Source: Dictyostelium discoideum (lineage: Eukaryota). Taken from it: 64,000 bases of DNA. The notes under the pieces are model-generated. The model saw only the letters and a list, made by a program, of their open reading frames with translations. It ran no database searches and was not told the DNA's origin. Shown here piece after piece: positions 14,110 to 36,570 of the stretch (its first letter is position 1; every line of letters starts with the position of its first letter). The stretch spans positions 2,272,001 to 2,336,000 of the forward strand of contig CM000154.2 of NCBI GenBank assembly GCA_000004695.1, read 5' to 3'. A program made the translations under genes and the position numbers.

Positions 14110-15552
14110 ATGAATTATAATTTCAAAAAAAAAGGTATAATATAACTTATAATTCTTTTTATAAATTTTTTTTTTTTTTTTTTTTTTTTAAAAAATCCAA
14201 GTTTTTTTTTTAAAAAAATAATAAATACTAATTATTATCATTTTTTATTTGTTTTTGTTATTTGTTATTATTATTTTATTTTTTTATTAGATTTAAAAGA
14301 TTGGTCAATTGAAGACACAAAAGAATGGATCAATGAATTTAAAAAAAGAGGACCAAATTTAGAGAATGTGGATTTTTCAAGATTTGAATGGGATGGTGAA
14401 CAATTATCATTATTTTCAATGTCAGATTTTCAAAGAATGTCACCTTATGGAGTTGCACTATACAGAAATTTATATTCACAACCTAAAATATTTCAAACAT
14501 TAAAAAAAAACAAAAGTATATCAAGTAGTGGTGGTGGAGGTGGTAGTAGTGGAGGTGGTAGTTATTTAAATAGTATTAATATTGGTAATATTGATTTAAA
14601 TGATGATTTAATTGAAAATGAAATTATTAACAGGACAGTTTTAATTAGAGTTGGTACAATTCATACATTTATTACATTTGGTGCTGGTTGTAGAATTGGT
14701 AAAAACTTAATATTGGTTTCAAAACATGTTGTTCATCATTCAACTTTTCCTCAAGATAAAATCATTTTCAATGTTGGTATTGTAATACCATCAAAATGGG
14801 TAACTGCAAAATTAATAGATCTAAGTCCAGATGATCAAACTGATTTAGCTTTATTAGAAATTATTGATTATGATTCAATTCATCATTTAAATTCTAATAA
14901 TAATAGTATTAGTAGTAGTGGTAGTATTAATAGTAAAGAATCAATAAAAAGTAGTGGTGGTGGTAGTGAATATGATAACAAATATAAAAATCAAAAACAA
15001 CAACATGATGAAAAAGATAATGAAGCAAGTGGTAGTAGTAACAATAATGATGATGAAAATTTAAATAAAAACCATATTGTAAATAGTAGTGAATTTACAT
15101 CACCATCATTTGATTATCATCATTTAGATGAATTAGAAAAGGAAAGAGAGAAACAAGATTATGAAATCATTTGTAATATTGAACCAATTAAATTCATTGG
15201 CCAAAATGAAGGATTATTGGGTAAAGATATTATTTTATGTGGTTTTCCAAAGGAACGTATTGATTTATCACTATGTCAAGAATTAAAGATAAAGGTTGAT
15301 ACAGTTTATCCATCCATTGAAAAGGGAACAGTATCATTTTCTGATGATAAACGTTTAGAATGTAACTCTGTACCAGAACCAGGTTACTCTGAATCCTCAT
15401 TAATCTTTTCAAAGTCTGATGCAAAATTTATTGGTTTGGTAAAGTCACAATATATGACTAATCCAAATAAATATTATTGTATACCAACTTCAACAATTTT
15501 AACTTGGATTAGTCAAGTTTCAAAAAAGAATTCAATCAATATTTCTTTTTAA
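14110..15552 (+). CDS. SAM-domain protein with a C-terminal trypsin/chymotrypsin-fold peptidase-like domain (possibly degenerate). Two exons: 14110..14134, 14291..15552
   Basis: Exon 1 MNYNFKKK + G, donor GTATAA at 14135, acceptor ttattag at 14290. SAM-like DLKDWSIEDTKEWINEFKKRGPNLENVDFSRFEWDGEQLSLFSMSDFQRMSPYGVALYRNL. Protease-like blocks GAGCRIGKNLILVSKHVVHH (His block), DLALLEI (Asp block), GYSESSL in place of GDSGGP. The ORF-track start at 14368 is a GTG, not a real start. Confidence 0.6.
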
Positions 15553-15918
15553 GAAAATAATAAAAAAAATAAAGACATTGTGAAAAAAAAAAAAAAAAAA
15601 CACACAACATTTTATTTTTTTATTTTTCAAAGATTTAATTTATTTTTAATATGGACAGAATATCTTTTTTTTTAAAACTAAAAAAAAAAAAAAAAAACAG
15701 AATGGTTACATTCATTTTTGCGTGTTTTTTGAGTGTTCTGTTTTATAAATTTAATCAATATTGAAAATAAATAAATTAAATCATTTTTAAAAAAAAATAA
15801 AAATTAAAAAAAATGAAAAAATTTGAAAGATTTTTTAATCTTTTTTTTTCATTTTTTTTTTTTTACTTTTTACTTTTTTTTTTAATCACTGCCCATAATT
15901 GCAAAATTACAACGTTTT

Positions 15919-15951
<33 letters not shown>

Positions 15952-15956
15952 AAAAA

Positions 15957-18485
15957 ATGGACTATGACTATGATAGTTCAGACTTACAGTATGATGATCA
16001 TAAACAAAATAGTAACTCTAAACTTGATACAAGTTTTAGATTGTTTAGGACAGGTACAATGTCATTATTTAACAATGTGGTAATAGTTGATTTCACATAT
16101 ACACCAACATCAATTTACTCTTGTCAATATACAATCATAGATTTAAATTATAAAGTTTTAGAAACTCAAAATATTTTATTCTCAAAAAGTACAAATGAAC
16201 CATTCAATGATAAAATGGATCAAATTAATAAAATGGTAAGATTCTCTTTCTCAATACCACACACACTCACACATTATTTTTACACAGTTTTTTTTACTAA
16301 TTTTATTTATAAATTTTTTTTTAAAAAAAAATAGATTTGTGATTCAATTGACAAATTAAGTGGAAGGGTTTTAGTACTTTCACCACAATCTGTTAATATC
16401 CCTTTATTAAATTTACCAATGTCAGTTCGTATATTTGATTTTCAACAAATTGCAAAAAAAAAGAAAATACCATTAAAATCATTTGATCAATTTAAAGATT
16501 GTAAATATACACCATATAAATGTTTTTTTTTTTTTTTTTTAAAAAAATTACTAATAATTTCTCTTATTATTATTATTTATTATTATTATTTATAAGATTA
16601 TAAAAATAAAAAACTTAATGTTGATTTTAAATTTACAATTTTATCATTATTTGTGGATCTTACAAAAAATTTTATTAAAAGTGATTTTAAGTTTCCATCC
16701 TTTAAACCAATTTTAATCGATATTAAAAGGGAAGGGTCCCTTGAAGGGTTCTTTGGACACTACATTTTTACAAATATTGAAATACCAATTGCAATAAAGA
16801 ATTTAATCAACGGATATAGAGATCATCTTAGAGAGAATAAATTACTATTAACACAACCAGAACTAGAAATAATAGACCAACAACAAGAAGAACATCAACA
16901 ACTACAACAACAATTACAACAACAACAACAACAATTACAACAACCACAACAAAAATCAGAAGTACAACAAAAATCTATTGTTGAAAATGAAGAAAATCCA
17001 CCAAGTGAAATGGAATCATCAATATCAGCTCCTCCACCTAGAAGAATTACACCAAATGAACTTTTAGATAAAAAAAAAAGAATTTTATTCTTAAAAAATT
17101 TAAAAAAATCACTTTTATTGAAAAAGCATCAACTTAATCACATCTCAAACCCTGATGCTGAAAATGATTTTAGTGAAATTGGTGAAACTACCCCAAAGAA
17201 AATAAAAGTATTAAATCTTGAAAAAGATAACAATAATAATAATAATAACGATAAAGATAATATATATTTAGAAAAGGATGATTCGCCAACTAAAGAAAAT
17301 AATAGTAACATTGCCACTACCACCAACACCAATCCCAATACCAACACCAACACCAATATCAACACCACCACTGCCAATAATAATGAAATAGCAAATACCG
17401 ACAATAATGTAAATAATGTTAATCAAGTAACTGATCAAGGTGATATCAAATACCATCACCAAGAATTAATTAGACAATTAACTAAACTAATTAGATTTGA
17501 ACAAAAATCTTTAAAAACTGATAGCAATAATAATAATGATAATAATGATAACATTGATGATAATAACAATAATATTAATAAAATCAGCCCAACTCCCCTC
17601 AGTACTTCCATCAATGATATTAATAATAAAAACAATACTACTAATATTACTAGCTCAATTCCACCCAATAGTACTAATAATAATAATAATAATAATATGA
17701 ACACAATTCCACTTGGCACTACCAATAATGATAATATTATCACAATTCCTCTCGATACTACCAATAATAATAATAATAATAATAATAATTTAAATCAAAT
17801 TAACCAAAATGAATTTAATCATAATATTTTATTACAAGTTCAAACCATTTTAGATAAAACCATTTTAAATCAACAATACTTTTTAAATGAAATTAATAAC
17901 TTATCTAAAAGGTTTGATAATATGCAAATTCAATTCGACTCAATATATAGCAAAATAAAATCAAATAATAATAATAATAGTATTGTTAATAATGGTAATA
18001 ATAATAATAATGGTAATAATAATAACTCAATAATTGATATTCAGAAAAAACAAAAAGAATTATTAGAAAAACAAAATAGAATTTTAGTTTTAAAGAATGA
18101 ATTACAAAAATTAGAATCTCAACAAGAACAAGTTAAACTTGAAAATGATAAAGATAAAATTAGAGATTCAAAAGAGAGATATAAATTCACAGGAAATAAA
18201 TATCCAAAAAAAATTAGTAATAATAATAGTAGCAGTAGTAGTAGTAGTAGTAGTAGTAGTAATAACATTATTAATAATAATAACCATCAAATTGATCCAT
18301 ACAATACCTATCAACAAAAACAAAAAACATCATTACAAAGAAGACCACCATTCAATAAACCAAATACCTCAAATGTCTTTATTAAAACTAAATTTAGACC
18401 AATAAATCATAGTGTTAGTGCTTTACCTCAAAAAAATACAATCATGTCTAGTTTCAGAAACTTTTTGAAATCTTTTAAAAAATAA
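15957..18485 (+). CDS. Uncharacterized protein with a structured N-terminal region and a long Asn/Gln/Thr-rich, partly coiled-coil C-terminal region. Three exons: 15957..16235, 16335..16500, 16597..18485
   Basis: ATG at 15957 ([14 protein letters not shown]...). Donor GTAAGA at 16236, acceptor aaaatag at 16334, donor GTAAAT at 16501, acceptor tataag at 16596. Phases 0 and 1 keep one open frame into the 610-aa ORF 16653..18485. The upstream part of ORF-track entry 15813..16334 is translated poly-T and was rejected. Confidence 0.5.
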
Positions 18486-18854
18486 TAAAAATAAAAATAA
18501 AAATAAAAACTAGAAAAAATAATAATAAAAATAAAAAAATAAAAAAATAAAAAAATAAAAAAATAAAAAAAATAAAAAAATAAAATAAATATAATAATAA
18601 AAATAGTTTTTTTAATTTTAATTATAAAAATAATAATAAAAAATTTTATTAATCAATTTTAGAATAATAATTTCCATTTTAATTATTATTATTATTATAA
18701 AATAATTAATTAATAATTAATATTGCAAAACATTTAATTCCCCCACTACTTATATAAATATTTACACACTGCTTTTATTAATTGGCTATAAGTGATCAAA
18801 AAAAAAAATAATAATAATTAAAAATTGTTTAGAATAATATTGGATAATGGAAAG

Positions 18855-18886
<32 letters not shown>

Positions 18887-19493
18887 AAAAAAATCTAAAA
18901 ATTAAAAATAAAAAAGTAAAAAGTCTATACTACAAATAATAATAATAGTAGTAGTGGTACTATTACAGTGGAAAGAAAGAGTAAAAAGATTTCTTTTTTT
19001 TATTTATTTTTTAAATTTTTATTTTTATTTATTTAATTTTTATATATCATAATCATCACTATTACCCCCATTTTTTAATTTTTTTTTTTTAATTTTAATT
19101 TTAATTTTAAAATTATTTTTATTTTTATTTCTATTTTTAAATAACACCCAAAACAATTTTTTTTTTTTTTTTTTTTTTTTTGGGATTTTTTTTTTTAAAG
19201 TCTCAATTATAATTATTCAACAAAAATAGATAAAAAACATTTAAATAAAAAAAAAAAAAAAAAAAAACCAAATTAAAAAATTAAAAAATTAAAAATTAAA
19301 AATAATAACCTATTATTTTTAATAAAAGATTGTCTTTTTTTTTTTTTTTTTTATTTAAATAATTTTTTTTTTTTTTTTTTTATTTGTTTAAGTTGCAATT
19401 TTTCTCATGTTGTCATATTCTTTCTATAATAATAATAAAATAAAAAATTAAAAAATTAAAAAATAAATTTAATAAATAATATTAAATAAAATA

Positions 19494-25048
<5,555 letters not shown>

Positions 25049-25385
25049 ACCATTTTTTAAAAAAAAAAAAAAATGAACGTCATTATTTGTTAAAATATCC
25101 AAATAAATTATAAAGTAATACTTTACTTTTTTTTTTTTTTTTTATTTTATCTTTTTTTTTTTTTTTTGTTTTTATTTATTTATAGTTTTACAATTATTAT
25201 TATCATTATTAGTTTTTTTTTTTTTTTATTTCTTTTTTTTTTTTATAATATATTACATAAAATTTGTTTGGAAAAAAAAAAAAAAAAAAAAACACTATAT
25301 GTGTTTTTTTAAATTTTTAGATTAATAATACATTATAAAAATTTAAATTAAAAATTATTTGTAATAAATTTTAAGAATTTAAAAA

Positions 25386-25997
25386 TTATATTGAAAATTC
25401 CAATTGATTTTGGTCAATGTTTTTAATGAAAACATGATAATGTGAAATTTCTTTTATACTTTGTAAATGAAAAGGATTGATAAAGAATAAGAAACCGTTA
25501 TCGTCATTGCTGAATTCTCTATTTGTAAGTTTTGAAATGAGTTGTTTTGCATCCTCATGATCAAGAGGTTTTAAACACCATAATACCCAATGTGAGATTG
25601 ATTTATCGCAACTGTATGGGAAATCGTTTGGTCTAAAAACTAATTTTTGTTCTAAATTCTCTGGTCTAATAGTTATTAATCTATTGAGTTCAATACCTTG
25701 TTCGTCTGTATAGCTTATAGTTTGTGTTGGAAATTTAAAAACTTTGAAATCAATATAATCTTTAATAGTTTTAAATTGTTGTTTTACAACCTTTAAATGT
25801 TTCTCCATCTCTGCTTGATCCTTTAATTTTCTACCCAATATTTCTAATCTATCACCTTGTATAATTTCTTTTAAATCTCTCCAATTCCTTTCACAATAAT
25901 CAAATTGTTGTTGTACTTTTATTTCTACATTTTCATTGTTACTATTGTTGACACAACAATTTTCGTTGTTTTCTTCAACTTGATTATTGTCTAACAT
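25386..25997 (-). CDS. Small conserved hypothetical protein (203 aa), single exon
   Basis: Intact ORF with non-repetitive composition and a conserved-looking block VFRPNDFPYSCDKSISHWVLWCLKPL. Upstream ATGs hit stops. I could not assign a family from memory. Confidence 0.5.
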   Translation of the reverse strand: MLDNNQVEENNENCCVNNSNNENVEIKVQQQFDYCERNWRDLKEIIQGDRLEILGRKLKDQAEMEKHLKVVKQQFKTIKDYIDFKVFKFPTQTISYTDEQGIELNRLITIRPENLEQKLVFRPNDFPYSCDKSISHWVLWCLKPLDHEDAKQLISKLTNREFSNDDNGFLFFINPFHLQSIKEISHYHVFIKNIDQNQLEFSI

Positions 25998-26122
25998 TTT
26001 CGATGTTTTATTATCTTGGTTTTCTCTGAGATATTATTTAAACATTTTATATTAGAAAAAAAAAATAAAAATAAAAATAAAAAAATAAAAAAAATAAAAA
26101 AAAAAAAATAAAATAAATAAAA

Positions 26123-26154
<32 letters not shown>

Positions 26155-26635
26155 TAATATGTAATGACAAAAAAGAATTAAAAAAAAAAAGGGGAGAAAA
26201 AATACACCACTTTTTTTTAATTTTTATTTTTATTTTTATTTTTATTTTTTTTTTTATTCTACGAATAATATTTTATAATTAAAATAATATCACTTACAAA
26301 ACATCTATCATTTTATAATTTTATATCTTTTTTTATTGGGTCGATAAAAAGGATGCAATTGAATAGAAAAAAAAAAAAAAATCAATTTAAATTTAATATT
26401 AAAGGAAAAAAATAAATTAAAATAAAAAATAAAAATAAAAAAAACAAAAAAAAAAAAAACTAAATATTAACAAAAAGAGGTAATTGCCCACCTAAAGTTT
26501 GGTTGAATTATTTCTTTTACAATTTTTTTTTCGAGCATTGTTTGTTTTAAAAAAAGTCAGTGGAATAGGTTGATAAAAAAGTGCTTATTTTTCATAAAAA
26601 AAGATATTTTTTTCCTCCTTAAAACGTTTTGCTCG

Positions 26636-26677
<42 letters not shown>

Positions 26678-27491
26678 TTTTTTGTTTTTTTGAAATAAAA
26701 AATACATAATATCTATTTTGATATTTCTAAAAACCCTTCCCCAAGTGGGAATGGAACAAATAAATGCTTGACAAGAAATAAAATTAAAAAAAAATATAAG
26801 ATTAATTTTTTCTTTATTTTTAATTAATTCTTTACCATTTTTTTTTTTTTTTTTTTTTTTTTAAAAATCATTATAATTAATTTGATTAAAAAAAAAAAAA
26901 TAAAAAAAAAATAAATAAATATTGTCTAACCAAAAATAGAGTAGAACGAGGTTGGATTTTTTTTATAATCAATCAAAAAAAAATGAAAATAATGATATTT
27001 TGGGAAAAATGAAAATAATATTTTGAAAAAGTGATTGCATTTTTTTGTGTTTTGGTCAATTCTTTTTTTTTTCCACCTTTTTTTCACCTTTTTTTTCATT
27101 TTTTTTTTTAAAAAATAAAAAAATATTTAAAATTTTGCATATAATAATTTTATCAATAATAATTATTTCTCATATTAATATTTATTTATTTGTTACTAAA
27201 TTAGTAATAATAAATTTATTTTAATATGTAGATATTTTTTAAAGTTATTTTAATTGGTACTTTCTAAATATAGAAATATTCTAAAAATAACAAAATTAAT
27301 AATAAAAATAATAAATAACAATTTAAAACAAATACATTCTTAAATTTTGACAAATTTCCTAAAATAATATTTTCCAGAAATTTGAAATATTCTTTGGAAA
27401 TATATTTTTTTTTTTTATTTTTTTTTTTTTTTTTTATATATATATGTTAAAAGAATAAAATTTTTTTTTAAAAAAAAACAATTATTTTATT

Positions 27492-30095
27492 TTATTGACT
27501 TGTAATTTTTAATTCATCTTTTGATTTATCAGCAGAAATTGTAACAACTTGATGATCTTTAATTTTACCTTCAAGTATTTGTTTTGCCATTGGATTTAAT
27601 AGAGTTTTTTGAATAACACGTTTTAATGGACGAGCACCATAGATTGGATCATAACCTTGATCGGCCAACCAATCGAGACCATCTTCTTTAACATTGAGAG
27701 CTATATGTTTTTCAGTGAGTAATTTTCTGAGATCATCTAATTGAATTTCAACGATTTTATCCATATCTTTACGAGATAAACGATTGAAAAGGATCATATC
27801 ATCGATTCTATTTAAAAATTCTGGTGGGAAACGTGAACGAACTACACCCATTACCTCTTCTCTAGCTGTTGCTGAAGGTGTATTATCAGGTAAATTTGCT
27901 AAAATTTCTGCACCCAAATTACTTGTTAGGATTACCATTGTATTTCTGAAATCTATTTTCCTACCTTGACTATCTGTGATATGACCATCATCCAAAATTT
28001 GTAAGAGTAAATTGCTAACTTCTTTATGTGCTTTTTCAAACTCATCAAATAGAACCAAAGAGTAAGGACGTCTACGTACAGCTTCAGTTAATGTACCACC
28101 CTCTTCATAGCCAACATAACCTGGTGGAGCACCAATTAATCTACTTACAGAGAATTTCTCCATGTATTCAGACATATCTATACGAATCAAAGCATTTGGA
28201 CTATCAAACATGAATTCTGCCAAAGTTCTACAAAGTTGAGTTTTACCAACACCAGTTGGACCCAAGAATAAGAAGGAGCCCAATGGACGACTATGACTAT
28301 GGAGTCCAGCACGACTAATTCTAACGGCATTACTTACGGCAGTGACAGCCTCTGGTTGACCAATTACTTGTGAACCTAATTCATCCTCCATCTTAAGTAG
28401 TTTCTCCTTTTCACCCATGAGCATACTATGAACTGGAATACCGGTGGCTTTCGAAATTACCAAAGCAACATCTTTTGCAGTGACAGCATCACTCACCATT
28501 GAAATATCACTCGATTGTTCTTCACCCTCTTTTGGAATTTGTTTCTCCAATTGTGGTATAATACTATATGCCAACTCACCAGCTCTTGCCAAATCACCTT
28601 TTCTTTGAGCTTGTTGAAGTTCAATCTTTGCTCTATCCAATTTTTCAACTGCAGTTTTTCTAATGGAAAGTTGTTCTTTCTCCTTCTTCCAAACTTCAGT
28701 GAGTTTATTATATTGTTTATCTTTTTCTTTCAATTCCTTCTCTAACTTTTCACGACGTTCCTTTGAGACTTGATCTTTCTCCTTTTTCAATGCTTCCAAT
28801 TCAATCTTTGATACGATAATTTGACGATTTAAATTTTCAATCTCCTCTGGGAGTGATTCTTGTTGGAGACGTAAACGACTTGCAGCCTCATCGATTAAAT
28901 CGATTGCTTTATCTGGTAAGAAACGATCGGTGATATAACGTTGTGAATTTACAACAGCAGCCACCAATGCACTATCAGTTATACGAACACCATGATGAAC
29001 TTCATAACGCTCTTTTAAGCCACGAAGAATTGCGATGGAGTCCTCAACCGATGGCTCTTGAACTAAAACACTTTGAAATCTTCTTGCAAGTGCAGGATCC
29101 TTCTCAATGTATTTTCTGTATTCTGCAGTGGTAGTTGCACCAACACAATGTAAATCACCTCTTGCCAATTGTGGCTTCAACATATTCGATGCATCCATAC
29201 CACCCTCTACTGCACCCGCACCAACCAATGTATGAAGTTCATCAATGAATAATATTACTTCACCTTTAAAATGTGCGACATCCTTTAGAATCGATTTCAT
29301 TCTCTCCTCGAAATCACCTCTAAACTTTGCACCAGCCACAATCGATGCTAAATCCAATGTCAATACACGTTTATTCTTTATACTATCTGGTACATCACCA
29401 TTTATAATTCTTTGTGCTAAACCTTCAACAATTGCAGTTTTACCAACACCTGGTTCACCAATCAACACTGGATTGTTTTTAGTTCTTCTACTTAATACTT
29501 GAATTGTACGACGAATTTCTTCATCTCTACCAATTACTGGGTCTAATTTACCACTCTTTGCTATCTCTGTTAAATCTTTAGTATACTTTTTTAATGCTTC
29601 TCCTGGTGGAACATTATCAGGTGATACCCATGGTTCTAAATAATTAAAAATAAAAAAAAGGTGTTAAAAAAAGGAACCTTTTACCAATTATTTATATATA
29701 TATATGATTATTAAATAAATTTATTATTTACCTTGTGGTGGTGGTTGTTGACCTCCTCCATTGCCTCCTACATTAATTTATAAAAAAAAAAAAAATTTTA
29801 AAGAAAATATTTAAGTAAAATATTCAAAAAATTTATAAATTCTTCAATTATAATCATAAGATTATTATTTAATATTTATTTATTTACCTTGAAAATTTCT
29901 AATTTGTTGATAAAATAATGATGATGATGGTGATGAATTTGAAAACAATGAACTATTTGTTAAATTATTATTTTTATTATTGTTGATTAAAATTTTATTT
30001 ATATTATTAGTTGTTGAAATAAAATATCTTTTATTTGAACTCTTAATAATATTTGAAATAGGATTAGTTTTAATAATATTTGATAATCTATTCAT
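27492..30095 (-). CDS. Mitochondrial Hsp78-type ClpB/Hsp104 AAA+ disaggregase, lacking the ClpB N-domain. Three exons: 29888..30095, 29732..29767, 27492..29635
   Basis: Exon 1 [29 protein letters not shown]... is a presequence-like basic/hydroxylated N-terminus. Donor GTAAAT, acceptor ..atgtag; 36-nt exon 2 [12 protein letters not shown]; donor GTAAAT, acceptor ttatttag. Exon 3 begins [67 protein letters not shown] (NBD1 Walker A). Second Walker A GPTGVGKT. Coiled-coil middle domain present. The ORF-track Met at 29468 is internal. Confidence 0.8.
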
Positions 30096-30518
30096 GTTTT
30101 TTTTTGTTATGTATATTAATTAATTTCTTTTTTTTTTTTTTTTTTTTTTTTTTTGTATCAAATGTACAAAGAATTAATAATGTCTTAGAAAATTAAAAAA
30201 ATAAATTGAAAAAAAAAATAATAAAATAATAAAATTCAATTATAATTTGTTTGGAGTTTTTTTTTTTTTTTTTATGGAATAATTTAATTATTATCTTTGA
30301 AATTTTGTGTGTAATAAACTACAAATAATCTAAAATAGCAATGTTGCTGTGTGTATGTGAAAATGTAAAATAAAAAAAAAAAGGGTGAACATGCCACTAT
30401 TTAATTTAAAAAATTTTTTATTTTTTTATTTTTTTTATTTTTTTATTTTTATTTTTCGTCTAAATTGCGTTTAAAAAAAAATGAAAAATAATTGCAATTT
30501 AATTTAAAATTCATAGCC

Positions 30519-30558
<40 letters not shown>

Positions 30559-30812
30559 ATTTTTAAAAGGGATTGGGTGGGTTTAATTTAATAATTTTTT
30601 TGGTTTTTTTAATTTCCATTTTGAAGGAGGTTTTTAATTTTTTTTAGTGAAATGAGTTTGAAAAAAAAAAAAAAAAAAAAAAAAAAACTATTTTTGGAAG
30701 TGATTGCTTTTGTTTTTTATTTCACTTTTTTTTTTTTTTTTTTTTTTTTTTAGTGTTTGGTTGGGTTTCTTAATTTCTTTTAGTGCATTGAGTTTTTTTT
30801 TAAAAAAAAATC

Positions 30813-32352
30813 TTAGTATTTAGAAGGTGAAGAGGATCTTCTTCTATACCCTCTGCTTCTACTTCTACTTCTGCTTCTACTTTTACTTTTATTCAAACTC
30901 CTACTTCTACTTCGACTTCTACTATAATCTCTAACTCGTCTATTTCTACTTCTACTTCTGCTTCTACTTCTACTTCTACTTAAACTTTTATTTATTCTTT
31001 TATTGTTATTTGAGTTTCTTCCAAAACTTCTACTTCTGCTTCTACTTCTACTTCCACTTTTACCTCTACTTCTACTTCTTGTTCTACTTCTACTATAGTT
31101 TCTTCTTCTTGGACTATAATCTCTATCAATTGATCTATTATTATTATTATTATTATTATTGTTGTTATTATAATGATCTCTATTATATCTACCACCTCCA
31201 CTATTTCTTCCACCACTTGAAATTCTATATCTATTATCTCTATTATCTCTAACATCTCTCATATCTCTACTACTACCACTACCACCTCTATAACTACTAC
31301 TACCACTAGAAGTGGTAGTAGTTCTTCTTTGATCAATTCCTCTTGATTTAAAAGATTGACTTGAAGAAGGTTTTGGATTTAAATATCTTACAGTTACAAT
31401 TTGACCATCGATTCTACCACCATCCATATATCTTTTTGCTTTATCTCTTTCATCTTTTTGATGAAAATACAATAAAGCATAACCCATTGGTTGATCAATT
31501 TCTTTGTCCCATAAGAAATCAATATCTTTTATTGAACCGAAATTTTCAAATATCTCTTGTAAATGGTCTTTATTAACATTGGGTGTTAATCTATCAACTC
31601 TAATTGGTGATAAACTATATGATCTTGGTGGTGGTGGTGGTGGTGGTGGTAAAGTTGATCTTGATCATACTTCTAGATCTTGATCTAGAATGTGAATTTC
31701 TTGGACGATTATTATTGTTGTGATGATGATGATGATGATGATGATGATGTTGTTGTTGTTGGTGATGATATTGCTTTTTTGGAGGTGGTGATCTACGTCT
31801 TGGTGAACGTGATCTTGATAATTGTCTTCTGTATGGTGATGGTGATCTCGCTCTAATTGGTGAACGTGATCTTGATAATTGTCTTCTTGATGATGATGAT
31901 GATGATGAATGTAATGGCGACCTTCTACTACTACCAACACCACCACCACCACCTCTATAATTACTTTCTCTATAGGGTGAGCTACTTTTTTTATCATTAT
32001 TATTATTATCATTATTTTTCCCACCAATTGGTGAACGAGATCTTGATGATTTTCTATTTGATGGTGAATAATTCATTGGTGAAGGTGATCTGGATGAACC
32101 ATTCTTTCTTTTATTTGATGATGACGATGGTGATGGTGAAGATTTTCTTTTAGGTGAAGGTGATAGTGGTGATGAAGATCTATTTGACTTTTTCTTTGGA
32201 GAAAGTGATCTTGATTTTGACCTTGATCTTGGTGATCTAGACATTGATCTTGATGTTGACCTTACTCTTTTAGGTGATAATTTTTTATCATCATCTTTAT
32301 TTAAATCTGGTGATCCATTACTACTACTATTATTATTATTATTATCACCCAT
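30813..32352 (-). CDS. RNPS1-like RNA-binding protein (N-terminal Ser/Arg-rich region, RRM, C-terminal RS domain). The reading frame as assembled is interrupted near 31660-31690
   Basis: RRM IRVDRLTPNVNKDHLQEIFENFGSIKDIDFLWDKEIDQPMGYALLYFHQKDERDKAKRYMDGGRIDGQIVTV closely matches the human RNPS1 RRM (KVHIGRLTRNVTKDHIMEIF...MDGGQIDGQEI). Upstream ORF 31615..32352 encodes SRSRS/SPSP-rich sequence on the same strand but in another frame. Dropping one nucleotide near 31665 gives ...SRSRSRSMSRSTLPPPPPPPPRSYSLSPIRVDRL... as a single protein. Confidence 0.55.
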
Positions 32353-33203
32353 AATAAACAGTAGTCGTAGTGCAATAATAAATTTTAAATTTTAAATTTT
32401 AAATTTTAAATTTTAAATGATAACAAAAAAAAAGTGAAATGAATCAAATTAAAATTTTAATTATTACTTTTATCGAATTTTGAATTATATGTATAAAAAA
32501 AAAAAAAAAAAGAAAAAATTAATTAAATTATTGAAGATAGTTAATGTGTGGGAATGAAATTAAATGAAAAAAAAAAAAAAAAAAATTTTTTTTTTTACAC
32601 TGCAAATTTTTATTTTTTTATTTTATTTTATTTTATTTTTTTTTGAATTAATTTTGGACATAATAAGATAATTTGAAGTTCGATTGAAAATGTGACATAA
32701 ATAATAATTCTTATTTATTCAATCTAGATAAAAAATTAAAAAAAAAGAAAAACCACATGTTTTTATTTTTATCTATTTTCCTGATGGTGGGCAATTCTTG
32801 ATAAAATAAAAAAAGAAAAAAATAAAAAAAGAAAAATAGATAAAAATAAAAATAAAAAAAAATTAGTGCTCATTCAAATAATAAAAACTTCATCAAAACA
32901 CACACACATTGATTAGGTTATTTATACATTTTTTTTGGGGGTTATTATTAAATTGTAAAAAAAAAAAAATAAAAAATAAAAAATAAAAAAAAAAATATAA
33001 ATAAATAAAAATACCAATATTTATTGTACAAAGGTAGTTAGTTTACCTATATTTAATATAAAAAATTTACATTTATATTTTAATAATTAATATATTATAT
33101 ATAAAATAAAAAAAATATAAAAAAATAGAAATTTACTAATTTCAATTTATTAAATTAATTTTTTCCATTTATTTAAAATTATTATTATTTTTATTATTAT
33201 TTC

Positions 33204-33234
<31 letters not shown>

Positions 33235-33579
33235 TATATAAAATGATTACTAATTAATTTTTATTTTTTTTTTTTTTCAATTGAAAAACCAGGAAAATAA
33301 TTATTAATTAATTCAAAATTAAATATGTAAGTTAAAATTAGAAATTTAAAATAAAGGTTGTGTTTTTTTAAAGATAAAATAATAAGAAACTAAAACATCT
33401 TGTGTTCACACAACCTATATCAGTTTTTTAAAATCAATAATAATAAAAATAATAAAAATAATAAAAATAATAAAAATAATAAAAATAATAAAAATAATAA
33501 TAAAAATAAACATATTATCGATAAAATTTATCATTGTTATTTTCATACAAAAATAAGAGGTGGTGTGGTTGAACTAAAT

Positions 33580-33622
<43 letters not shown>

Positions 33623-34103
33623 CTTATTTATATTTTTACACACAAAAAATCACAAAGGGTGAGATTTATATATTTGGGTTTTTTTTATGTGGCAAAAAAA
33701 AATGTATTGTTTATTTATTTGTGTTTTTGAGTGTGGGTTGAGTGTGGTAATGATAGTGTTTTTTGTTTTGTTTTTGTTTTGTTTTGTTTTGTTTTTTTTT
33801 ATGATTTATTATAAATATTTTTTTTTTTTTTGTTATCAATTTTTTATTTTTTTTTTTTTTTTTTACTTATATGTATATTAATATTAATATATTATTTTTA
33901 TTATATTATTTGGTTTTTTTTTATTTTTTTTTTTGTTTTTTTAATAAATAATTAATTTTTTTTTTTTTTATTATAATTTTTTTTATTTCACACTTATACA
34001 TATATATAATTTCATATTTTTAATTATATCACATCATTAATTATTCACCAACACTTTTTTTAAAATATTATCAATAAAATTTATGATATTAATATTTTTT
34101 TTT

Positions 34104-34141
<38 letters not shown>

Positions 34142-34184
34142 TTTCCTTTTATTTTTTTAAAATTTAGAATACTTAAAAAATAAA

Positions 34185-34215
<31 letters not shown>

Positions 34216-34272
34216 CAAAACAAATATAAAAACAATAAATATCCATATAAATATAAATAAAAATCAATAAAA

Positions 34273-35050
34273 ATGGGAATTTCATCATCTAATCCTTTTA
34301 GTTCAATTTTTAAAAGTAAAGCAATAAAATTATTAATGCTTGGTTTAGATGGAAGCGGTAAAACTACTATATTATATAAATTAATGTTGAATGAAGTAGT
34401 TTCAACAATTTCAACATTAGGATATAATGTTGAAACAATTCAACATAAACATTTAAATTTAACAGTAAGTAAAAAAAAAAAAAAAAATAAAAAAATAATA
34501 ATATCATAATATATAAAAATTATCTAATTTAATTAATTTATTTATTTATTTATTTATTTAAAAAAATAAATAAAAAAAAAATAAAAAAAAGTTATGGGAT
34601 TTAGCAGGTGAAGAAAGAATTAGAACATTATGGAAACCATTTTATAATAAATGTACTGCAATAATATTTGTAGTTGATAGTAGTGATAGATTAAGAATTG
34701 ATGAAGCTGCATCAGAATTAGCTAAATTAATGAAAGAGGAAGAATTAAAAGGTTGTTCATTATTAATATTTGCAACAAAACAAGATTGCATATCGCCAAT
34801 GGAAATACCCGAATTAACCGATCAATTGGGTTTACATGATATTAAAGATCGTAGGTGGTATGTACAACCAACAAGAACATTAGAAGGTATTGGAATTTAT
34901 GAAGGATTAGATTGGTTATCAACTAAAATCATTGAAGATCGAAAATCGAAATCATTTAAATCTAAATTCTCTTTTTCAAATAAAAGTAAACAACAAAAAT
35001 CAAATAGCCAACCAAATACACCAAGAAAAAATATTCAAATGATGACATAA
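34273..35050 (+). CDS. Arf-like (ARL) small GTPase with non-canonical G3/G4 motifs. Two exons: 34273..34464, 34592..35050
   Basis: MGISSS N-terminus with Gly2. P-loop GLDGSGKTT. Donor GTAAGT at 34465, acceptor aaaaaag at 34591, phase 0. Exon 2 starts LWDLAGEERIR (switch II with Gln replaced by Glu). LLIFATKQD in place of NKxD. Basic Ser/Lys tail. Confidence 0.8.
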
Positions 35051-35089
35051 TTAAAATAAAAATAATTATTAAAAAAAATAATAATAATA

Positions 35090-35125
<36 letters not shown>

Positions 35126-35544
35126 GCGCTTAATTAAAAAATTAATACTATTCTGTAAATAAAACAAACTCATTATTTTCAAATTATTGATTAAAAATTT
35201 TAAATAAAAAAATATTTCTTTATTTTTTTTATAATTAATTTAAAATGTTTTTAATCAATACAAAATCTCACCCCACTTTTTGAATAGATAAAGAAAAATA
35301 AATATGACAATTTTTGGTGAAAAAAAGATTAATCTTAAAGTGGGGGAAAGGGGTGGTAGTTATTTGAAAAAACAATAATATTTTTAAAAAAGGTTTGTAA
35401 CAATTTGGAAAAAAATAAAAAAAATAATAATAATAATAATAAAAAGTTTTAAAAAAATGAAATTATTTTTCAGTTAATCAAATAAAAAAAATACAAAAGG
35501 TTATAAAAAATAATATTATTATAATTATAATTACTATTTCAAAA

Positions 35545-36570
35545 ATGAAATTAAAATCAATAATAACTGAAATATTCGAAGTTATTGCTCCATTTTTTTT
35601 TAGTTTTTTAATTATTATATTTTCACCAATTTTAAAATTCATTTGTTTTAAAAAATCATTAAAATTTTCAAAACCTAAATCAATAGTTATTACAGGTACT
35701 TGTTCAGGTTTAGGAAGAGAATTAGCTTGTAAATATTCATCAATTTATAAAAATGATTTAACATTATTATTAATGGGAATGAATGAAGATAATTTAAATC
35801 AAGTAAAACAAATTTGTCAAAATCATGGATCAATTGTTTATACAATTATTGAAAATATTAAAAATAAAGAAAGAATGAAAAACCATTTAATTGAATTTCA
35901 TTCAAAACATCCAATTGATTTATTAATTGCAAATGCTGGTACAATTGAATGTAACTTTTATTTTTTTTTTATTTTTTTGTTTTTTTTTTTTTTTTATTAA
36001 CACACTTTAATTTTTTTTTTTTTTTTATTTTTAACATAAGCTCAACTTAAAGAATCGTTAAGTTTTGAAGATAAACTTCGTGAAATATCAGATACAAATA
36101 TTAATGGAATGTTAAATACAGTGTTACCTGTTATTCCATTAATGGAATCAAGAGGGTGTGGACAAATTGCAATAGTTTCATCATTGTCTAAGAATTTCTC
36201 GTCATTTTATGTTGGTTATAGTGCAAGTAAAGCATATATTTCAACATTTACTAAAATTTTAAGAAACAGATTACATGCATTAAATATTGGAGTTTATTTA
36301 ATTGAACCGGGTTATATTTCAACACCACTAACTCAAACATTAAAAATAAAACCTTTATTTGAAATTAAAATTGAAGATGCGGCACCAGAAATTATTGAAG
36401 GAATTGAAAATGGTAAATCATATATCTCATTCCCATTTAGTGCTCGATGTGTCTCAATTATTTCACATGCTGTTCCTGAATTTTTAACTGATGCCATTAA
36501 TTCATTTAATTCTTTCTTTTTTGGAAGATTTGATTTTCACAAAAAAGATATTAAAAATAAAATCAATTAA
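35545..36570 (+). CDS. Membrane-anchored short-chain dehydrogenase/reductase (SDR), paralog 1. Two exons: 35545..35950, 36041..36570
   Basis: N-terminal TM helix. IVITGTCSGLGRELA (TGxxxGxG). DLLIANAGTIE then donor GTAACT (phase 1), acceptor acataag. YSASKAY (YxxxK). Confidence 0.75.

Follow-up and report, generated by a model that had tools for sequence, protein, structure and literature searches.

An RNPS1/SR45-like gene of Dictyostelium discoideum divided between two reading frames by a single, probably spurious base

Two overlapping frames at the RNPS1/SR45-like locus

The window (here, the whole stretch of 64,000 nucleotides of Dictyostelium discoideum DNA that was analysed) carries on its minus strand a gene resembling the RNA-binding proteins RNPS1 and SR45, the coding sequence of which is broken between two reading frames (Table 1). 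An RNPS1-like gene lying in two overlapping frames of the same strand was the content of the original prediction, and this layout was reproduced. The upstream frame (ORF1) terminates with a TAG at 31617..31615, its last 17 residues being out-of-frame artefact sequence. The downstream frame, which is in +1 relative to ORF1, is directly preceded by a TGA at 31667..31665, opens at 31664 and ends with a stop at 30815..30813; it reads SRSTLPPPPPPPPRSYSLSPIRVDRL and, in a longer listing from 31664, SRSTLPPPPPPPPRSYSLSPIRVDRLTPNV. ORF1 and the downstream frame share 50 nt (31664..31615). The expected rejoining of the frames by a single-base skip holds well beyond one position, as a one-base skip at any point of 31664..31618 fuses both.

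The downstream frame is unusually long for an open frame in this DNA. Stretches of at least 283 stop-free codons make up 15 of the 9673 in the window, the composition-based chance of 283 open codons is approximately 2e-11, and shuffling the downstream part 20000 times never left it open; the open frame is therefore not a product of chance. Its first ATG, at 31487, lies inside the RRM. A search of all solved chains with this RRM returned the human RNPS1 RRM as the best relative (4a8x_A, E = 1.2e-15, 61 bits), with SRSF2 ranked second (E = 1.1e-10). The RNPS1 alignment, which begins at PIRVDRL, covers 74 RRM residues, 40 of which are encoded upstream of position 31487; hence, the RRM part does not constitute an independent gene. 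A reading of the locus as two independent genes was rejected for the same reason, as the RRM would be left without a start of its own.

Table 1. Features of the RNPS1/SR45-like locus and its surroundings (window coordinates)
Feature	Position	Strand	Description
Whole RNPS1/SR45-like gene	30813..32352	-	1540 nt in the window, frame-broken
Upstream ORF (ORF1)	31615..32352	-	245 aa, Ser/Arg-rich N-terminal region with His10 run
Downstream reading frame	30813..31664	-	283 codons + stop; Pro8 linker, RRM, C-terminal RS/RD-rich tail
RRM domain	31401..31604	-	Pfam RRM_1, residues 21-88 of the downstream frame, E = 2.6e-12
(CCA)8 = Pro8 (correct frame)	31626..31649	-	In the wrong frame (ACC)8 = Thr8, 31650..31627
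Extra base	31667	-	Gene-strand T, + strand A; absent from all seven other assemblies
Substitution	31651	-	Window T, L001 C; Leu vs Ser in the repaired frame
Substitution	31703	-	Window C (Pro), L001 A (Gln)
GT..AG bridging interval	31598..31670	-	73 nt, GTATGA...TTAGAG, 59% A+T; rejected as an intron
Private-substitution patch just 3' of the gene	30556..30723	-	About 20 window-private substitutions in about 170 nt

The same locus in other assemblies

The neighbouring DUF3605 gene (25997..25386, minus strand) was used as a handle to reach the syntenic loci of other assemblies. The exact DUF3605 product is present in the D. discoideum assembly GCA_054883475.1 (hereafter L001), and its 90% cluster includes AX4 DDB_G0289045 as well as proteins of two more D. 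discoideum isolates, D. cf. discoideum, D. citrinum, D. firmibasis and D. dimigraforme. Seven assemblies were compared (GCA_054883475.1, GCA_054859385.1, GCA_054859355.1, GCA_054859205.1, GCA_054859145.1, GCA_036169595.1 and GCA_000190715.1), of which three are from D. discoideum and one each from D. cf. discoideum, D. citrinum, D. firmibasis and D. purpureum. They stem from at least three separate projects, D. purpureum being an older, separate assembly. Sequencing by Nanopore and Illumina is documented for the set of Holland et al. (PMC12745789) and for D. firmibasis. Five of the seven assemblies appear to share one such Nanopore and Illumina project (PMC12745789) and may have systematic errors in A/T-rich DNA in common; however, shared errors of that project do not account for the restored reading frame.

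In all seven assemblies, the gene is one uninterrupted, intron-less ORF that includes the RRM and encodes between 429 and 519 aa, a result that answers the comparison with other dictyostelids proposed at the outset. In the near-identical L001 the same gene spans 1539 nt and encodes a single protein of 512 aa; the other two D. discoideum assemblies (L004 and L005) have ORFs of 501 and 506 aa, D. cf. discoideum (L006) of 519 aa, D. citrinum (L002) of 486 aa, D. firmibasis (L007) of 467 aa and D. purpureum (L003) of 429 aa. These syntenic orthologues from group-4 dictyostelids, all unnamed 'hypothetical proteins', share the orientation and architecture of the window copy and are flanked by genes for an Arf-like GTPase and a ClpB-like AAA protein. 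At the nucleotide level they match the window with identities of 85% (D. firmibasis) up to 99.9% (L001); at the protein level, D. purpureum and L001 share 48% identity. The extra T is carried by the window copy only, whereas the orthologues are all single-ORF, with variable homopolymeric amino-acid runs. A scan of metagenome contigs for the junction found neither allele.

Strains and species differ in how long the His10 run and the poly-Asn, poly-Ser and Pro8 runs are (31760-31710 and other parts of the gene, minus strand). In L004, L005 and L006, for instance, the His run is reduced or missing, and D. citrinum has an interruption in Pro8.

Pairwise alignment of the gene to L001 revealed three differences, all of them within 53 nt: the extra T at 31667 and the two substitutions listed in Table 1. 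This T occurs in none of the six other assemblies that were aligned at the DNA level (seven-sequence alignment). At 31651, all five other assemblies aligned at the column have C and the T of the window is private, while at 31703 the four other D. discoideum-clade assemblies have A and the C of the window recurs in D. citrinum. The TGA at which the downstream frame closes (31667..31665) exists only because of the extra T. With the T removed, AGT AGA TCA AGA TCA ACT T(C/T)A CCA is read as SRSRSRSRSRST(S/L)PPPPPPPPRSYSLSPIRV, and the intact junction peptide is SRSRSTSPPPPPPPPR. The extra base belongs to a repeat of the Arg and Ser codons AGA and TCA and precedes the (ACC)8 run by 17 nt. The anticipated 1-nt indel near 31665 thus agrees with the one-base difference from L001 at 31667, but its assignment to the (ACC)8 run itself does not. 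The repair suggested earlier, a skip after AGT ATG to give SRSRSRSMSRST, has to be replaced, as the alignment gives SRSRSRSRSRST, in which the residue is R and not M.

Sequence quality and the origin of the extra base

L001 aligned to window positions 36025..15375 with 99.61% identity over 20.6 kb, which corresponds to 39 mismatches and 12 indels in about 20 kb. Across the 20.6 kb of this pairwise alignment, the gene spans other than the RNPS1-like gene hold zero differences. In the multiple alignment, these other gene spans show one mismatch between the window and L001 in 12,524 columns, and that single mismatch is probably an alignment artefact. In the same gene spans, the window differs by about 3.4% mismatch from L004 and L005, which are wild isolates of D. 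discoideum, and the figure for D. cf. discoideum is about 5.4%. The near absence of coding differences in approximately 12.5 kb, as against 3.4% to L004 and L005, places the window and L001 in the same laboratory lineage. The source of the window would very probably be the Sanger-era AX4 reference of D. discoideum, chromosome 5, or an equivalent, and L001 is probably the laboratory strain AX2-214. At another locus, AX2 and AX4 assemblies are 99.5% identical and the coding regions of tgrB and tgrC are unchanged (Holland et al. 2025, PMC12745789). The divergence of L004 and L005 from the window, much greater than that within the laboratory pair, fits the deep divergence and possible cryptic species discussed in the same paper (PMC12745789).

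The polarity of the differences was assigned from a MAFFT multiple alignment, with L004, L005 and L006 as referees between the window and L001. The referees agree with L001 in 36 of the 43 substitution columns, where the window base is the odd one out. Window-private substitutions are gathered in patches at 34244-34143, 33697-33615, 31703-31651, 30723-30556 and 19199-19077, and these patches suggest short low-quality stretches of the window's assembly. Homopolymer lengths also differ from those of L001, the longer run always being that of the window. At about 30800-30540 (minus strand), 3' of the gene, there are two tandem units of about 110 nt, each ending in AATCACTTC(C/T)AAAAATAG and then a long T run; their number and content vary among strains of the D. 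discoideum clade, and they are possibly a repeated 3'-end or intergenic element.

The mutation rate of D. discoideum is approximately 3e-11 per site per generation, so that far less than one real difference would be expected in 20 kb between laboratory strains derived from NC4. The 39 substitutions and 12 indels are too many for such strains, and nearly all of them would consequently be errors in either one assembly or the other.

The split of the gene is best explained as a sequencing or assembly error in which one spurious T was inserted at 31667 on the gene strand, and we assign this reading a probability of roughly 0.85. The gene is intact in seven other assemblies, so that the break almost certainly stems from a local sequencing error, and because the window and L001 are of the same lineage, three independent true mutations within 53 nt are very unlikely. 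The locus would then consist of one intron-less gene for a protein of about 512 aa, with a Ser/Arg-rich N-terminus, then a Pro8 linker and a single RRM, and an RS-rich tail at the C-terminus. The spurious T would sit in a short patch of base-calling or assembly errors (31651-31703) in the source assembly of the window, and in the organism the gene would be read straight through as NSHSRSRSRSRSRST(S)PPPPPPPPRSYSLSPIRVDRL. Against an error stands the base at 31703, which matches that of D. citrinum, so the three differences are not all window-only. An assembly error or strain indel had been put forward as the most likely cause, a view to which the seven intact loci and the absence of T 31667 from L001 lend support; a true frameshift or pseudogene had been ranked lower, and with the downstream frame fully open and an error favoured, that order is retained.

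We infer an error as the source of the extra T; a true mutation of the laboratory lineage is the alternative that survives best. Under that alternative, the T would be a genuine mutation in the strain of the window that arose in the laboratory (for example in AX3/AX4 after the split from AX2), leaving a null or truncated allele whose product is a 245-aa SR-rich protein without the RRM. The T is indeed present in the sequence as given, and a downstream frame free of further decay fits a very recent mutation, although it fits an error equally well. Three changes in 53 nt, however, when about 12.5 kb of further coding sequence show not one, do not resemble independent mutations, and the further private-substitution patches in nearby non-coding DNA of the same assembly point to local sequence quality; the mutation rate given above likewise predicts far fewer differences than the 39 mismatches and 12 indels seen. 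A genuine mutation is on balance unlikely. Were the T real, the AX4 lineage would plausibly be a natural mutant whose only RNPS1/SR45-type gene is truncated or has lost its function, an outcome that we consider a shade less likely again. An SR-rich fragment without the RRM could then subtly change splicing or mRNA surveillance relative to AX2, and a standard laboratory strain would be without an intact RNPS1 orthologue; otherwise, the locus holds no new biology.

Splicing could also join the two frames. When all GT..AG intervals whose removal restores a single ORF were enumerated, 31670..31598 was the sole short one, with SHSRSRSR joined to IDRLTPNV, and an automatic gene predictor could pick it. 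The introns of Dictyostelium are recognised by a GTAAGT-like 5' site, about 90% or more A+T and non-coding content, and this interval has none of these features: it starts with GTATGA and is 59% A+T, as opposed to two introns of neighbouring genes that start with GTAAGT and are 91.6% and 96.1% A+T. It also codes for conserved in-frame protein (SRS..PP..RSYSLSPIRV) in the other assemblies, where an intron is neither needed nor annotated, and its excision would remove Pro8 as well as the start of the RRM match. We regard this short atypical intron as highly improbable. Even less credence is given to a programmed +1 ribosomal frameshift, or to correction of the transcript by editing or polymerase slippage, as the route to a full-length protein. 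The overlapping frames with their 50-nt shift window are the sole feature in its favour; the shift is rejected since it is absent from the near-identical assembly of the same species and from all six other strains and species, which are single-frame, and in addition no recognised shift-prone motif is apparent there and the stop in the downstream frame is produced by the extra T itself. An old pseudogene is excluded by the fully intact downstream frame, the lesion amounting to one frame-breaking base, with 283 codons open and one substitution relative to the intact allele.

Annotation of the gene and its relation to RNPS1 and SR45

The chief value of the spurious-base reading is an annotation correction. 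If the window is the reference assembly, its gene model here, whether it presents the locus as two genes, with a fabricated 73-nt intron or as a pseudogene, would be wrong, and a single 512-aa protein of the RNPS1/SR45 type should take its place. The comparison also draws attention to the short stretches nearby where base calls are poor. In the proposed source assembly, the RNPS1-like gene would adjoin the DDB_G0289045 region of AX4 chromosome 5. The AX4 model DDB_G0289045 for the DUF3605 gene (26311..25386, minus strand) starts with a 14-nt exon (26311..26298), has an intron of about 270 nt and encodes 217 aa. Its exact mapping to the window is one of the grounds on which the AX4 identity is proposed. 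In the other D. discoideum assembly, DUF3605 is annotated only as a 203-aa single exon from 25997, and the annotations thus conflict on the start.

Exact look-ups of ORF1 and of the downstream ORF (ORF2) as separate products returned no record, and the 512-aa product has no entry in the protein cluster collection. A literature search that included RNPS1 in Dictyostelium and frameshift errors in dictyBase found nothing on this gene. A word-indexed protein search gave no matches for the RRM region, and its matches for the repaired 512-aa protein were limited to distant SR45/RNPS1-like proteins. The best single-RRM relatives in that search and in a full scan of 1.84 billion representative proteins carry the names SR45 or 'RNA-binding protein with serine-rich domain 1'. 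Such distant homologues combine the SR-rich N-terminus with the RRM on one chain, some of them with a proline run as well.

Several features place the protein in this family. In the PDB sequence search, its single RRM resembles that of RNPS1 more closely than it does other RRM families, and a Ser-rich (S/RS) region precedes the RRM on the same polypeptide in the seven other assemblies; in the window copy, this region is continuous with the RRM only once the extra T is removed. The 195 residues that follow the RRM form a C-terminal Arg/Ser-rich domain rich in RS, RD and RN repeats. Judged from its sequence, by RRM similarity together with domain order, this is an ordinary RNPS1/SR45 family protein. 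The RNPS1-like identity and architecture first proposed are therefore upheld, by RNPS1 as the best solved relative of the RRM and by the named homologues, SR45 and the serine-rich-domain protein. By homology, the protein would serve as the RNPS1 subunit of ASAP/PSAP-type complexes, assemblies with SAP18 and Acinus or Pinin that are associated with splicing and the exon-junction complex.

Human RNPS1 (PDB 4A8X chain A, in the ASAP complex) and the Dictyostelium protein have in common the order of a Ser-rich N-terminus, a single RRM and an Arg/Ser(/Pro)-rich tail. Human RNPS1 is approximately 305 aa in length and the Dictyostelium protein, at about 512 aa, is far longer. Unlike its human counterpart, it contains His10, poly-Asn and Pro8 runs, homopolymers typical of Dictyostelium, as well as long RS/RD repeats, and it is of low complexity and unalignable to RNPS1 outside the RRM. 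Its C-terminal tail has a lower proline content than those of the animal and plant proteins. SR45 is the plant orthologue of RNPS1, and plant SR45 and SR45-like proteins are among the best single-RRM matches, with 37-47% identity over the RRM. In several of them (e.g. P0005), the SR-rich N-terminus leads into a proline run (PPPPPPPP) that directly adjoins the RRM, as in the Dictyostelium protein. Beyond the RRM, the plant proteins resemble it only in the overall make-up of the flanking regions.
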